Counted from the first letter of the stretch, positions 1 through 27,337 are shown. The stretch: DNA of 31,949 nt from a virus (IMGVR_UViG_2563366840_000012:1-31949); one strand, 5' to 3'. The notes: a model not told the origin generated them from the sequence alone. Numbers and translations: made by a program.

Positions 1-933
1 ATGGACAACGACAAAATTGATCAACACAGCGACGAAATTGAAGTTGAGAGCGAAGAAAAAGAGCGCGGCAAAAAAATAGAAATAGATGAAGACCGACTCC
101 CCTCCCGGGCGATGGCAATTCATGAGCATATCCGCCAGGATGGTGAAAAAGAGCTGGAACGCGACGCAATGGCGCTACTGTGGTCAGCCATTGCGGCGGG
201 TCTGTCGATGGGCGCTTCGTTACTGGCAAAAGGGATATTTCATGTCGAACTGGAAGGTGTGCCGGGCAGCTTCTTGCTGGAGAATCTCGGTTATACCTTT
301 GGTTTTATTATCGTCATTATGGCCCGCCAGCAATTATTTACCGAAAATACCGTGACTGCGGTACTACCCGTCATGCAAAAACCGACAATGAGCAACGTCG
401 GCTTACTTATACGGTTATGGGGCGTCGTGCTGCTGGGTAATATTCTCGGGACAGGTATTGCGGCGTGGGCATTTGAATATATGCCTATCTTCAATGAAGA
501 AACTCGCGATGCATTTGTCAAAATCGGCATGGATGTGATGAAGAACACCCCCAGCGAGATGTTTGCCAACGCGATCATTTCCGGCTGGCTGATCGCCACT
601 ATGGTTTGGATGTTTCCTGCAGCGGGTGCGGCAAAGATTGTGGTGATTATATTGATGACCTGGCTTATTGCCCTGGGTGACACCACCCATATCGTGGTCG
701 GTTCTGTTGAAATCCTCTATCTGGTGTTTAACGGTACGCTGCACTGGAGCGATTTCATCTGGCCCTTCGCACTACCTACTTTAGCGGGGAACATCTGCGG
801 CGGCACCTTTATCTTCGCGTTAATGAGTCATGCACAGATTCGTAACGACATGAGCAATAAGCGTAAAGCAGAAGCACGCCAAAAAGCAGAACGTGCGGAA
901 AACATTAAGAAAAATTATAAAAACCCGGCATAA
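1..933 (+). CDS. yfdC: Formate/nitrite-transporter-family inner membrane protein (YfdC-like), host gene flanking the prophage
   Basis: 310 aa ORF; hydrophobic multi-helix protein; recognised as the E. coli gene adjacent to argW; synteny with tRNA-Arg immediately downstream. Confidence 0.8.
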   Translation: MDNDKIDQHSDEIEVESEEKERGKKIEIDEDRLPSRAMAIHEHIRQDGEKELERDAMALLWSAIAAGLSMGASLLAKGIFHVELEGVPGSFLLENLGYTFGFIIVIMARQQLFTENTVTAVLPVMQKPTMSNVGLLIRLWGVVLLGNILGTGIAAWAFEYMPIFNEETRDAFVKIGMDVMKNTPSEMFANAIISGWLIATMVWMFPAAGAAKIVVIILMTWLIALGDTTHIVVGSVEILYLVFNGTLHWSDFIWPFALPTLAGNICGGTFIFALMSHAQIRNDMSNKRKAEARQKAERAENIKKNYKNPA

Positions 934-1008: not shown

Positions 1009-1083
1009 GTCCTCTTAGTTAAATGGATATAACGAGCCCCTCCTAAGGGCTAATTGCAGGTTCGATTCCTGCAGGGGACACCA
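1009..1083 (+). tRNA. argW: tRNA-Arg (anticodon CCU), integration target
   Basis: 75 nt cloverleaf GTCCTCTTAGTT...GGGGACACCA; 7-bp acceptor stem, anticodon loop CTCCTAA gives CCU; encoded 3' CCA; integrase gene follows. Confidence 0.85.
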
Positions 1084-1244: not shown

Positions 1245-2423
1245 ATGCTCACCGTTAAGCAGATTGAAGCAGCAAAGCCGAAAGAAAAACCATACCGCCT
1301 TCTCGATGGTAATGGCCTGTACCTTTATGTCCCTGTATCCGGGAAAAAGGTATGGCAGCTTCGCTACAAGATTGACGGTAAGGAGAAAATCCTGACCGTA
1401 GGAAAATATCCGCTTATGACTTTGCAGGAGGCAAGAGATAAAGCATGGACCGCGAGGAAAGACATCTCGGTTGGCATCGATCCGGTAAAAGCGAAAAAGG
1501 CTTCGTCTAACAACAATTCATTTAGTGCGATTTACAAGGAATGGTACGAGCACAAGAAGCAAGTCTGGTCAGTAGGCTATGCAACTGAACTTGCCAAAAT
1601 GTTTGATGACGACATTTTACCCATCATCGGCAGCCTTGAAATTCAGGATATTGAGCCGATGCAACTGTTGGAAGTAATCCGCAGATTTGAAGATCGCGGT
1701 GCAATGGAGCGAGCCAACAAAGCACGCAGAAGATGCGGTGAGGTTTTCCGTTACGCTATTGTCACCGGAAGGGCTAAATATAACCCTGCACCTGACCTTG
1801 CAGACGCCATGAAGGGATACCGCAAGAAGAACTTCCCGTTTCTTCCAGCAGACCAGATCCCCGCATTCAACAAAGCACTGGCAACATTTTCAGGAAGTAT
1901 CGTATCGCTTATTGCGACTAAAGTTTTACGCTACACCGCCCTAAGAACGAAAGAACTTCGTTCCATGCTATGGAAGAACGTCGATTTTGAAAACAGGATT
2001 ATCACCATCGACGCCAGTGTGATGAAGGGTCGCAAGATTCATGTAGTACCGATGTCAGACCAGGTAGTTGAACTTCTCACTACGCTAAGCTCAATCACCA
2101 AACCAGTATCAGAGTTTGTTTTTGCCGGGCGCAACGATAAGAAGAAGCCAATCTGCGAGAACGCGGTGCTACTTGTGATCAAACAAATCGGCTATGAGGG
2201 TCTGGAAAGCGGTCACGGATTCAGGCATGAATTCAGCACGATTATGAACGAGCACGAATGGCCTGCTGATGCTATTGAAGTGCAACTGGCACATGCCAAC
2301 GGCGGATCTGTGCGCGGGATTTACAACCATGCTCAGTATCTCGATAAACGCAGAGAAATGATGCAGTGGTGGGCGGACTGGTTAGATGATAAGGTGACAC
2401 AATGCCACCAAAGCAAATTATGA
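1245..2423 (+). CDS. intS: Tyrosine integrase, P4 family (IntS-like)
   Basis: ORF 1209..2423; ATG at 1245 (MLTVKQIEAAKPKEK...) matches the N-terminus I recall for CPS-53/KplE1 IntS; track start at 1209 is GTG; adjacent to tRNA. Confidence 0.85.
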   Translation: MLTVKQIEAAKPKEKPYRLLDGNGLYLYVPVSGKKVWQLRYKIDGKEKILTVGKYPLMTLQEARDKAWTARKDISVGIDPVKAKKASSNNNSFSAIYKEWYEHKKQVWSVGYATELAKMFDDDILPIIGSLEIQDIEPMQLLEVIRRFEDRGAMERANKARRRCGEVFRYAIVTGRAKYNPAPDLADAMKGYRKKNFPFLPADQIPAFNKALATFSGSIVSLIATKVLRYTALRTKELRSMLWKNVDFENRIITIDASVMKGRKIHVVPMSDQVVELLTTLSSITKPVSEFVFAGRNDKKKPICENAVLLVIKQIGYEGLESGHGFRHEFSTIMNEHEWPADAIEVQLAHANGGSVRGIYNHAQYLDKRREMMQWWADWLDDKVTQCHQSKL

Positions 2424-2504
2424 AGCAGGAAAATTTCTATACAGTATATACTGCGCCATACCAGATTTTCAGCCTATATGGCACAGATTTGCGCGGTGAC
2501 TTAT

Positions 2505-4361
2505 TTATACAGTATACGCAACAGAACCATCAGCTTTATAGTAGTTGCCATCTCCTCCCCACCACACCGGAATTTTGAATACTGTATCATACGAGCAAAG
2601 ACCAATCACTGCTCTGTCGTGTCGTGCTTTAATATCTGCGGTTTTACCGGAAGAAAATTCAACTACCTGATGCACAATATAATTACTATTGTTAGTCCAC
2701 TGAATAACATGATGCTCCCTGGTCCCTGCGCTAACATAAATGTCGCTATGCCAATCTGCGATAATAGAGTTTATAACACCATTGTAATACGTTGCATTTA
2801 ATTTAAAGAACCCTGTATCCTGACCAATTACACTGAGCCACGGACTGAATAATTGTTTGATATCAGGTGTAGAGTTAATAAGTTGTATCCTGAATTCAAA
2901 ACCGTTACGCACATTATTCTCATTGCACCACTCTTTAATGGCGTTACATGCCTCAAGCACAGACATTGACGGGGTTACAGTTGATAAGTATAAATACTTT
3001 GCAAGTTCAGAATCTGAACTAAGTACAATATCTGAGGTCTGAATCTTACTTGTATAGTTAACTACAGGAAATAAACTCCCATCAACAACGTTAAGAGCGC
3101 GTGTTAGTGGATAATCTTTTGTCTCAAGTGTATTAAAATAGGTGTTACTTGTTAATGCATCAACCACACCAGGTCTAAAATTAAAAACATTAGCATCCCA
3201 TATAGTAAGATGAAATCTACAGTGATTCATCATTCCTGGAGCATGCTCCATATGAACAATTTTGCTCATTTGAGGATGAGGTTGTGCTTTTAATCTTATT
3301 AAAATATCTCCAATTCCAGATGATATATTACCTGAAGATGTTGGTAAGCTTGTGTCGCGAAAATGATATGTTGAGAACCATGAAGATAAGTTTAAATCTA
3401 GTGAAGATATAAAGTTTAACTTATTTGCACCAACACCCATGGCATGAGCAACAGTAAAACCTGTTGAAGATACATCTATTTCATTAAAAATCAAAACTTC
3501 TTCATCAATTGAATTGCAATCTATAGAAAAACCATATCCTTCATCCATAACAGGAGATGTAGCAACCTCTTGTTTTACTGCTCCCTGGCGGTTAAAAACA
3601 TAGAATGGACCAAATTTTGTCTTTTGAGTTAACCTGTCAAGATTTGCTGGCGAGGTATAGTATTTTGTACCTCTAATTGTTAATGCAATACGTGTGTATC
3701 CTCCACCAGGGATATCGACAGTTATCCTCATTCCGTTTCCGATGACATCAGTAAGAACGTTTTTAAATATCAACCCATCTATGTTGCTGCGGATAATGAA
3801 CTCTACATCAGGGCCAATGTGCAACCGTTCCAGCAGTGAGACATCTATATTATGTGGTCTAGTAATTAAATACTTCCCTGAATTCACTACAAAAGAACCG
3901 TCTTTAAGCATATCATCAAGATAATCACTACACGATATATTACCAGTATTATCAGCCCCGTAAGATTTTAGATCCCCACCAATGTATTGATAACCGTATG
4001 GAGAATGAAGTTGTTCCTTTAGTTGATCAGGATCATACTTAAGAACATTAGGAAAGTAGAACTGCTGTGAACCATATGCATCATAAACAGCCATAGAATG
4101 GCCTTGTACAGTTACGAATTTGGCAATCTGTCCGTTATATACCGGATAACCAGCAGCGTTAATGATGATTGGCTGTGCAACAGGAACGTGAGAACCATCT
4201 TCGTTCTCTACATAAACCTGAATCTGGTTTTCAGGATTTACCGGGTCAGTGTCAATTTTTCCTATATAAATTTTGCCATTGGCTACGGCTTTAAAAGAAC
4301 GAGCCATAGTGAAGAGTTGCGAAGGCATGCTTACCACAACATTTGCGGTGATATCTGACAT
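2505..4361 (-). CDS. Tailspike protein: conserved P22/Sf6-type N-terminal head-binding domain, divergent receptor-binding domain
   Basis: N-terminus [60 protein letters not shown] is the P22 gp9-type head-binding domain; start ATG 4359-4361 with GGAG RBS; rest of protein does not match P22, Sf6 or HK620 tailspikes as I remember them. Confidence 0.85.
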
Positions 4362-4482
4362 TTTATTGCTCCAGACGAATGATATGATGCAACCATGATG
4401 TGATTGCATACAGAAATGGTACTATTGAGTATTTATCCAGTAGGTTACGATGCCATTCCACCCAACTGGTGAGGCATCAAGG

Positions 4483-4743
4483 ATGTACAGCAAATACGAC
4501 GAGGCGCAGTTTCACTTGAGACTTCCGCATGAACTCCACGCGAAAATTAAACAGCGCGCGAAGATGAATAACAGGTCGCTGAACTCAGAGATAATTGCAG
4601 CGATTGAAGAATCATTGGCTAAACAAAGCTCTGCATCAGTTTACATTGACGATGCAGAGCGTATGGCAGAACAACAATCTGATATGGTTAAGAAAATTGT
4701 CTTTGATACGCTCAAAGAGCTATATAAAAAAGACAGCAGCTAA
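4483..4743 (+). CDS. mnt: Mnt-like ribbon-helix-helix repressor (orphan; no arc/ant nearby)
   Basis: Alignable by eye to P22 Mnt (..NNRSLNSEI.. and DAERMAEQQSDMVKKIVFDTLKELYKK versus P22 DAERLADEQSELVKKMVFDTLKDLYKK); divergent from tailspike; start could be 4450. Confidence 0.7.
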   Translation: MYSKYDEAQFHLRLPHELHAKIKQRAKMNNRSLNSEIIAAIEESLAKQSSASVYIDDAERMAEQQSDMVKKIVFDTLKELYKKDSS

Positions 4744-25743: not shown

Positions 25744-26441
25744 ACACTTGCTCCTTTCAGTCCGAACTTAGCTTTGATTTCTGCGATCTTCGCCAGAGCC
25801 TGTGCACGATTTAGAGGTCTACCGCCCATGACAGGAAGTTGTTTTACTGGTTCAGGGATCGCCTCACCACGGTTAATTCTCGCAGTCATATGGACAAGCT
25901 CATCTGCGGCCTTACGGCGTAATTCCGCATCAGTAAGCGCATTGGCCCGCATGTTCTGATACAGGTTGGTAACCAGCCAGTAGTGCGCGTTTGATTTCCA
26001 CGGATAAGACTCCGCATCCGGATACAGGCCTCGCTTCCGGCAATACTCGTAAACCATATCAACCAGCTCGCTGACGTTTGGCAGTCCGGCGGTAACGGAT
26101 GCTTCTTCCCGGCACCATGCAACAAACTGCCCGGGTGATGGCAGAAATGGTCGATTCTGCCGACGGGCTACGCGCATTCCTGCGTTAACCTGTTCCATCG
26201 TGGTGATCCCGTTTTCCCGAAAAGCCAGAACCCACTGGCGACGGATTTCGTTCACTTCGTTCTGGTCACGGTTAGCCAGGCTCGCCGGGAAAGTTGCCAG
26301 TAACTGGCTGAACACACCGTTGATGATCTGCGCTACCTGCTGTACCTGCGGCTTTTCGTCGTACTGTTCCGGCATGTTGTTGGCGATCCGACGCATCTGC
26401 TCACGGTCAAAGTTAACCATCTGTGCGGCGATGTTTTTCAT
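25740..26441 (-). CDS. P: Replication protein P (DnaB loader)
   Basis: 233 aa, near-identical to lambda P. Confidence 0.95.
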   Translation of the reverse strand: MKNIAAQMVNFDREQMRRIANNMPEQYDEKPQVQQVAQIINGVFSQLLATFPASLANRDQNEVNEIRRQWVLAFRENGITTMEQVNAGMRVARRQNRPFLPSPGQFVAWCREEASVTAGLPNVSELVDMVYEYCRKRGLYPDAESYPWKSNAHYWLVTNLYQNMRANALTDAELRRKAADELVHMTARINRGEAIPEPVKQLPVMGGRPLNRAQALAKIAEIKAKFGLKGASV

Positions 26442-27337
26442 AGATCCACCCCGTAAATCCAGTCTGTGTTTGTCAGGTCGAGTTTTGGTTTGCTGGCTGT
26501 CACGCCTGCCTGTTGCTTGTTACGGTTGATTTCGAGTTGGGTCCACTTATCGCGGAGTTTGGCCGGGCTCAGCACGTTACCGGACCAGAAGTTGTCCTGG
26601 CATGCCCAGCGGAACAGCACACACATGTCGCGGTGGTTACGTCCGTCACGTTCACGCATCAGGCGGATATCGTTAGCCCACCCAGCAAAATTCGGTTTTC
26701 TGGCTGATGGTGCGATAGTCTTCACCATGTCAAACATCCACTCTGCGGCGGTCAGGTCTTCTGCTGTCCCCCACTTGCTGCCGCTCTGAATTGCAGCATC
26801 CGGTTTCACCACAGAAAGGTCGTTTTCTGGCTGGTCAGAGGATTCGCCAGAATTCTCTGACGAATAATCTTTTCTTTTTTCTTTTGTAATAGTGTCTTTT
26901 GTGTCCCCCTGTTTTGAGGGATAGCAATCCCCCAATTTGAGGGATGTTTTATCCCTCGTTTTAGGGGATTTTCCCTCGTTTTGAGGGATGCACCATTCTG
27001 AGATGTTTTTATTTGGTCCAAACATGCCGCCTTGCTGCTTGATAATATTCATTCTGACGAGTTCTAACTTGGCTTCATTGCACCGTTTGACAGGTAACTT
27101 TGTAATCTCGCTAAGTTGAGAATCGGTGATTCTGTCCATTGGTTTATTCCACCCATAGGTTTTACGCAGAATGGCAAGCAGCACTTTAAACTGTCGCTTG
27201 GTCAGATCTGCGCCCGAATAAGCCTCAAGCAGCATATTTGATAGTCTGGCGTAACCATCATCGAGATCTGCCACATTACGCTCCTGTCCGGCAAAGTTAC
27301 CTCTGCCGAAGTTGAGTATTTTTGCTGTATTTGTCAT
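26438..27337 (-). CDS. O: Replication initiator O
   Basis: 299 aa, near-identical to lambda O; contains ori iterons. Confidence 0.95.
   Translation of the reverse strand: MTNTAKILNFGRGNFAGQERNVADLDDGYARLSNMLLEAYSGADLTKRQFKVLLAILRKTYGWNKPMDRITDSQLSEITKLPVKRCNEAKLELVRMNIIKQQGGMFGPNKNISEWCIPQNEGKSPKTRDKTSLKLGDCYPSKQGDTKDTITKEKRKDYSSENSGESSDQPENDLSVVKPDAAIQSGSKWGTAEDLTAAEWMFDMVKTIAPSARKPNFAGWANDIRLMRERDGRNHRDMCVLFRWACQDNFWSGNVLSPAKLRDKWTQLEINRNKQQAGVTASKPKLDLTNTDWIYGVDL
26860..26990. other. ori-lambda: four ~19-bp iterons plus adjacent AT-rich region inside O
   Basis: Repeats of TCCCTC(A/G)xxxxGAGGGA-type inverted units at about 26903-26921, 26927-26945, 26951-26970 and 26972-26989, flanked by a T-rich tract at 26861-26900. 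Confidence 0.85.

Follow-up and report, generated by a model that had tools for sequence, protein, structure and literature searches.

The DNA analysed here, a stretch of 31,949 nucleotides which is referred to below as the window, represents the left end of a prophage that is P22-like, belongs to the IntS type known from Sf6, HK620 and CUS-3, and is integrated at argW. The main features of this region are listed in Table 1. The integration site is that of the KplE1/HK620/Sf6-type (IntS) module, viz. the 3' end of a tRNA-Arg gene containing the 16-bp core TTGCAGGTTCGATTCC, which is also the att core of CUS-3, HK620 and Sf6. Since a single copy of this core is found within the window, attR must lie outside it. 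The integrase likewise shows the characteristics of the IntS module, as it is a heterobivalent tyrosine integrase whose gene reads away from attL and whose arm-type sites overlap its promoter. The remainder of the window consists of a P22-like late and early region. A complete sister prophage is present in the E. coli genome EC187792, where it extends from intS at attL to torI and a second copy of the core at attR, about 38.8 kb apart. The intS gene has its ATG at 1245 and a TGA stop at 2421-2423; the RefSeq annotation of EC187792 served as evidence for its boundaries. For the tailspike gene, the start is probably at 4361 and not at 4409, to which the longest ORF extends; its stop (TAA on the - strand) is located at 2505-2507 and the protein ends in ...VAYTV*. 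In phages of the IntS type attP is located upstream of int, and the int gene therefore still adjoins the tailspike gene, which converges on it, after integration. The part of the tailspike gene coding for the receptor-binding region (2505-4000) is low in GC (about 0.37 vs 0.48 for the window), and just past the start of this gene a 97-aa ORF for an Arc/Mnt-type ribbon-helix-helix protein (4450-4743, + strand) is found in an immI-like region, as in P22.

Table 1. Features at the left end of the prophage, with positions counted from the first nucleotide of the window
Feature	Position	Strand	Evidence and remarks
yfdC, host gene	1-933		Form_Nir_trans
argW, tRNA-Arg(CCT), integration target	1009..1083	+	ARAGORN
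attL core TTGCAGGTTCGATTCC, 16 bp	1054-1069		within the 3' portion of argW; same sequence as the attL core of CUS-3
Three IntS arm-type motifs TTTTACCC/GGGTAAAA	1200..1244		in attL, overlapping the intS promoter region
intS, integrase, 392 aa	1245..2423	+	Pfam Arm-DNA-bind_3, Phage_int_M, Phage_integrase
3' flank of the int module, minority type without the canonical int terminator	2403..2473	+	alignment, flank listing
Direct repeat, copy 1, TATACAGTATA	2438..2448	+	perfect only in the window
12-bp palindrome CAGTATATACTG	2442..2453		window-specific
Compound hairpin, candidate intS terminator	2449..2498	+	followed by ACTTATTTATA
Flank junction	2473..2474		cassette of ~1.02 kb exactly here in MB06232, L012 and L016; flank sequences, Pfam, GC
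Decayed terminator hairpin of the cassette/tailspike side, GGCACAG-ATTTGCG-CGGTGAC	2480..2500	+	T-tract at 2501-2509
Tailspike, 618 aa from the likely start	2505..4361	-	Pfam Head_binding, E 5e-67; translations; EC187792 RefSeq

The int and tailspike genes converge, as the original prediction had indicated, and the distance between them, which it had given as about 80 bp, is exactly 81 bp (2424-2504). The sequence motifs that it described for this gap are also located where it had placed them. The palindrome is perfect over its 12 bp, and the 11-bp sequence TATACAGTATA is repeated at 2506-2516, with no other copy in the window, this second copy overlapping the tailspike stop in such a way that it covers two bases of the stop as well as the Val, Thr and Tyr codons. 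Both motifs are at the level expected by chance when the whole window is considered as the search space. Perfect 12-bp palindromes are found three times in the window (at 2442, 3238 and 19423), whereas 8.6 +/- 2.9 are expected from dinucleotide shuffles, and palindromes of this kind are under-represented across the window as a whole. For exact 11-mer direct repeats no more than 100 bp apart, the expected number is 0.64 per window and at least one is present in 47% of the shuffles. The window contains six such local repeats, and three of the other five lie in the replication-origin iterons at about 26.9 kb, to which the greater part of the window's surplus of local direct repeats is due. Four iterons of 19 bp, similar to TCCCTCnnTTTGAGGGAT and spaced by 20-24 bp, are located at 26905-26990 within a 299-aa ORF (26438-27337, - strand), an arrangement resembling a lambdoid replication origin inside an O-like gene.

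The two motifs are also not conserved in related prophages. In EC187792, the closest relative, whose sequence is 97.8% identical, TGTACAGTATCTACTG is present where copy 1 and the palindrome are found in the window, with CTGTACAGTATCTACTG where the window has CTATACAGTATATACTG, and 2 of the 11 positions of copy 1 are different; in the other relatives more positions differ. The site of copy 1 reads TGTACAGTATC, TGTACAGAATC or TGTACAGCGTC in the relatives, the substitutions at 2439 and 2448 being specific to the window, and the site of the palindrome reads CAGTATCTACTG in EC187792 and CAGTATCGACTG in MB06232 and L012. Over the same stretch, CTGTACAG(T/A)ATCGACTG is found in those relatives in which the gap is filled, and CTGTACAGCGTCGACAG in the lambdoid prophages of Salmonella. 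In view of the divergent bases in all of these relatives, the palindrome in its perfect form and the exact match between the 11-mers have arisen by substitutions at 2439, 2448 and 2449 in the lineage of the window; copy 1 and the palindrome owe their perfection only to two or three point substitutions of recent date. Copy 2 of the repeat is invariant in all four of the aligned relatives because it is coding, and the 3' end of the tailspike gene as such shows the same invariance. In our reading, the palindrome and the perfect 11-bp repeat are recent products of chance rather than sites for the binding of proteins, and they have no function of their own.

In this family of phages, the interval between int and tailspike is well known as a site where cargo genes ('morons') for the modification of surface polysaccharides are carried, and in the window this site is unoccupied. 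The original prediction had noted that P22 and Sf6 carry their modification genes between the tailspike gene and att/int, and examination of these phages bears this out: the interval contains oac in Sf6, gtrABC in P22 (between tailspike and attP), a wzy-like O-antigen modification gene in HK620 and neuO in CUS-3. Its proposal that the slot for conversion genes is empty here is likewise upheld. No polysaccharide-modifying gene, or any other gene, is located between the tailspike stop and int/att in the window, and tblastn searches with six conversion proteins (Sf6 Oac, the MB06232 acyltransferase, the HK620 O-antigen modification protein, and P22 GtrA, GtrB and GtrC) revealed no match in the window, nor in the complete sister prophage of EC187792. 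At the same time, a modification gene is present at this locus in relatives with homologous flanks. In E. coli MB06232 (L006) and in the IMG/VR contigs L012 and L016, the cassette that is inserted at the junction has a GC content of 0.303 and codes for a 301-aa Acyl_transf_3 protein, i.e. a member of the Pfam family of Sf6 Oac, although the similarity of the MB06232 acyltransferase to Sf6 Oac is marginal (26% identity over 159 aligned positions, E 0.001). The gap in the window is made up of two abutting pieces, viz. the int-module 3' flank (2403-2473) and the tailspike-module 3' flank (2474-2504). The occupied and empty alleles of this 1.02-kb O-acyltransferase moron form a clean pair, which defines the insertion point to the base (2473|2474), and the prophage in the window probably does not bring about serotype conversion of its host by means of a gene at the classical site. 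A further state of the slot is seen in E. coli PCP06173 (L005), which has the same tailspike flank and a different int flank, with 295 bp of remnant DNA between them. This filler contains six tandem TTAGCAA heptamers (2653-2694 of that locus) followed by a terminator-like hairpin GCCCTTCATA...TATGAAGGGC, and in CUS-3 heptanucleotide phase-variation repeats (neuO) are found in the same slot; by analogy, the heptamer array of PCP06173 may be the remnant of a phase-variable cargo gene.

An empty slot is common in this group of phages, for which it has already been described. The survey covered the 80 IMG/VR loci in which IntS is most similar; in 67 of them a tailspike gene of the head-binding type converges on int within 7 kb, and the interval between the int and tailspike stops in these loci is at most 150 bp in 24, 150-300 bp in 6, 0.3-1 kb in 6, 1-2 kb in 19 and more than 2 kb in 12. 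The two genes are therefore separated by 300 bp or less in 30 of the 67 prophages, a frequency which, similar to the others given here, is a rough one as the loci were not de-replicated. Of 5,426 complete E. coli genomes, EC187792 was the only one in which the whole interval of the window was found, and searches with the 19-mer spanning the junction in metagenome and GTDB genome collections gave only 11 matches, all of them unrelated chance ones.

As far as about position 2395, the DNA sequence of intS is 96-97% identical to that of int in HK620, Sf6 and CUS-3. The ancestral stop codon of intS is located at 2400-2402, where TAA is present in EC187792, L012, L016 and the Salmonella relatives, and CAA in the window and MB06232. 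Due to this CAA, the IntS protein is longer by 7 residues (QCHQSKL), and when the ancestral stop is used as the limit, the homologous intergenic interval amounts to 102-103 bp. The int flank that follows (2403-2473) is common to EC187792, MB06232, L012 and L016, and up to about 2460 it is also shared with lambdoid prophages of Salmonella. In the comparison over 2403-2460 with loci L007 and L013-L020, this minority flank (CCACCAAAGCAAATTATGAAGCAGG...) shows about 86% identity to the latter prophages, one example being phage 29485, and in Salmonella prophages of this type the gene converging on int is a tail-fibre gene and not a tailspike gene. As the same flank is found beside a tail-fibre gene as well, the int module together with its flank moves between phage morphotypes. 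A flank of the window type is not present in any of the 80 IMG/VR IntS loci, and in 48 of these 80 an HK620-type hairpin (CACAAAGCCTTGCA-ATCCAG-TGCAAAGCTTTGTG) followed by a T-run is located directly 3' of the int stop. In the HK620 record, the latter hairpin, with a folding energy of about -20 kcal/mol, is annotated as terminating the int transcript of the prophage; it is not found in the window.

The structure in the gap which could serve in termination is the compound hairpin at 2449-2498, formed by the pairing of 2449-2456 with 2491-2498, 2463-2468 with 2485-2490 and 2472-2474 with 2480-2482. On the + strand its folding energy is -16.0 kcal/mol (z -2.76, 3/200 shuffles). Its complement on the - strand, which is part of the tailspike (late) transcript, is located 19 nt past the tailspike stop and has arms at 2451-2460 and 2477-2486 (-16.6 kcal/mol, z -2.45). 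The same compound fold is seen in EC187792 (z -3.15), the empty allele with this hairpin being known from two genomes, viz. the window and EC187792. The sub-windows containing the hairpin, which were picked after the inverted repeat had been seen, fold better than 96-99.5% of their shuffles (1-8 of 200 fold at least as well), and the folding of the whole interval of 124 nt is no better than that of shuffles (z -0.9 and -0.7). A scan for canonical intrinsic terminators detected nothing in the gap. Compared with a terminator of that kind, which has a GC-rich stem of at least 5 bp, a loop of 3-8 nt and a U-tract, the structure at 2449-2498 is a non-canonical hairpin of 50 nt that encloses 34 nt, contains G-U pairs and is followed by an interrupted U-tract, CUUAUUUA (5 U in 8). 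The suggestion that a bidirectional terminator may be located here therefore holds only in part: the palindrome itself gave no match in the terminator scan, whereas the larger hairpin with its T-tract could terminate the transcripts of intS. Transcription termination of a weak or modest kind is the only plausible function for the gap, and we give it a chance that is close to even or slightly below. If the compound hairpin acts in this manner, then together with TTATTTATA it would stop transcription from intS ahead of the tailspike gene, which would otherwise be read in antisense, and it would take the place of the decayed terminator whose counterpart closes the acyltransferase cassette in the relatives.

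Other functions for the motifs in the gap have to be weighed against this reading. According to the original prediction, the repeats might be integrase arm-type or IHF-associated sites, and an accessory role of the 11-bp repeat and the palindrome in attL/attP would be in accordance with the AT-richness of the gap, its position next to int and the occurrence of the repeat at just two places in 32 kb. However, the gap and the core are about 1.35 kb apart with the int gene between them, and attL lies upstream of intS; in KplE1, mapping of attL placed it at -223..+64 around the ATG of intS (PMC2951348). The arm motif (TTTTACCC/GGGTAAAA) is present in 8 copies in the window, where 0.72 are expected. 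Three copies cluster at 1200-1244 upstream of intS and one is at 1615, and these are the counterparts of the attP repeats in the HK620 annotation. A motif search of 2424-2520 revealed neither this arm motif nor the IHF consensus WATCAANNNNTTR. The repeat, which was to be looked for at the right end of the prophage, is also missing near attR of the EC187792 sister prophage, and two of the 11 bases of copy 1 are changed in this 97.8% identical genome, with more changes in other relatives. Based on these results, recombination sites in the gap are excluded as far as sequence allows, and we consider it highly improbable that the motifs serve as accessory sites. Of other known elements, a LexA box (CTGT-N8-ACAG) has no match in the entire window, the half-sites of the gap palindrome being reversed in comparison (CAGT...ACTG), and covariance models from Rfam gave no match at E <=1 on either strand of 2250-2750.

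It could also be proposed that the functional stem, either a bidirectional terminator or an mRNA-stabilising 3' structure, is provided by the palindrome or by the pairing of 2438-2448 with 2506-2516. In the minimum-energy fold of the + strand, the two copies, which are nearly self-complementary, are indeed paired and close the entire gap. However, this fold is no more stable than those of shuffled sequences (z -0.9), its stem consists of A/T only and contains a mismatch, and the pairing is weakened in EC187792 due to the differences in copy 1, while the palindrome on its own gives a stem of at most 4 bp with no U-tract, and the scan found no terminator; a stem of this kind is thus very unlikely. 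Still less can be said for the gap encoding a small protein. An ORF of 58 aa (2402-2578) is present, a peptide could begin at the ATG at 2420, and small hypothetical ORFs have been annotated at this place in Kapi1 and Dewey. However, an extra T in EC187792 shifts the frame of the ORF, the ORF is totally divergent past 2473 in the relatives with a filled slot, it runs antisense through the 3' end of the tailspike gene, and neither deletion nor overexpression of hyp24, the Kapi1 ORF at this place, led to an LPS phenotype (PMC8787464). The ORF at 2402-2578 was rejected as it is not conserved, and we see next to no chance that the gap encodes a protein. The perfect repeats are missing from the relatives, and the only fold of the gap is a hairpin resembling a terminator, which is essentially the combination of results that the original prediction had named as speaking against it; what stands of its interpretation is the empty conversion slot and, partially, the terminator, but not the arm-type or IHF sites.

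The hairpin at 2480-2500 is the decayed remnant of a terminator on the side of the cassette and tailspike. Its intact counterpart in the relatives, GGCACCG-CACAAAT-CGGTGCC followed by TTATTTTAT, is located on the + strand and abuts the tailspike stop. The intact form is present beside this stop in four relatives, including PCP06173, and the decayed form, with two mismatches in the stem and an inverted loop, only in the two empty alleles. As folded over 21 nt, the energy is -2.4 kcal/mol in the window vs -11.2 kcal/mol in MB06232 (-12.6 kcal/mol for MB06232 in a context of 43 nt). The loop in the window and EC187792 is inverted, with identity to the loop-inverted form at 19/21 positions vs 13/21 for the direct form; the 7-nt loop, ATTTGCG in the empty alleles and CACAAAT in the filled ones (L005 2845-2865, L006 2487-2507), looks like the result of a hairpin-loop flip. 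Since decay of the terminator is confined to the two empty alleles, the sequence comparison suggests that the empty state arose by loss of the cassette rather than by its never having been present. In the opposite order of events, the junction without cargo would be ancestral, and the acyltransferase cassette now seen in MB06232, L012 and L016 would have entered it later; this is a possibility of some substance, which we nevertheless regard as doubtful. Morons are usually gained as units of promoter, gene and terminator, and later insertion is in keeping with this usual mode of gain, with the clean junction at 2473/2474, where there is no microhomology, and with the foreign composition of the cassette (30% GC). 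However, decay of the terminator in the two empty alleles alone fits the loss of the gene that it served, this being weak evidence from few genomes. Both of the substitutions which break the old hairpin (C to A at 2485 and T to C at 2492) strengthen the hairpin at 2449-2498. It may be speculated from this that selection rebuilt a terminator from the leftover flanks after the loss, in which case the substitutions in the palindrome and the repeat could also be adaptive, for instance by creating a site that favours the re-acquisition or exchange of cargo; we regard this scenario as quite unlikely. We are fairly confident of the reading as a whole, in which an unoccupied cargo site, motifs due to chance and modest termination by the compound hairpin are taken jointly.

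Comparison with known systems places the locus among well-described arrangements. In the Shigella phage Sf6 (AF547987), similar to the window, an argW-type IntS integrase (96% DNA identity) is encoded by an int gene convergent on the tailspike gene, and the interval is a cargo site whose oac gene specifies an O-acetylase of the Acyl_transf_3 family, as does the cassette in the relatives of the window; however, with oac the two stops in Sf6 are 1190 bp apart, compared with 81 bp and no gene in the window, and the sequences past int are unrelated. HK620 (AF335538) has the same recombination module, and terminators are annotated in it directly 3' of int (for the prophage int transcript) and after the tailspike gene; unlike the window, it carries a 1.2-kb O-antigen modification gene and the canonical int hairpin. 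Cultured examples of the empty state are the Escherichia phage Kapi1 (171 bp) and the BASEL phage Dewey (239 bp), which are P22-like phages integrating at argW with no recognisable conversion gene in the interval, i.e. empty-slot Lederbergviruses. Their gap sequences are unrelated to that of the window, and that of Kapi1 differs further in containing a strong GC hairpin (CCCGCC/GGCGGG, -15 to -16 kcal/mol) and a small annotated ORF. In phage lambda, the tI/sib hairpin is located just past the int stop and ends the int transcripts. Its resemblance to the hairpin in the window is one of function only, as there is no sequence similarity, and in the IntS family integration does not separate the element from int; no sign of RNase III processing or of retroregulation is seen in the window.

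The work on Kapi1 sought conversion genes at this very interval, and the small ORF located there was without an LPS phenotype (PMC8787464). The importance of the present locus beyond annotation is small, its state being an ordinary and already known one. The interval between int and tailspike is a mosaic joint at which cargo cassettes are gained and lost, and short perfect repeats and palindromes in AT-rich joints of this kind should, when they are not conserved, not be taken as protein-binding sites. The tailspike of Kapi1, which is otherwise different from that in the window, likewise ends in Tyr-Thr-Val-stop, with the sequence ATACAGTATA (L010 1486-1500), and the motif of repeat copy 2 thus recurs as coding sequence in another family of tailspikes.
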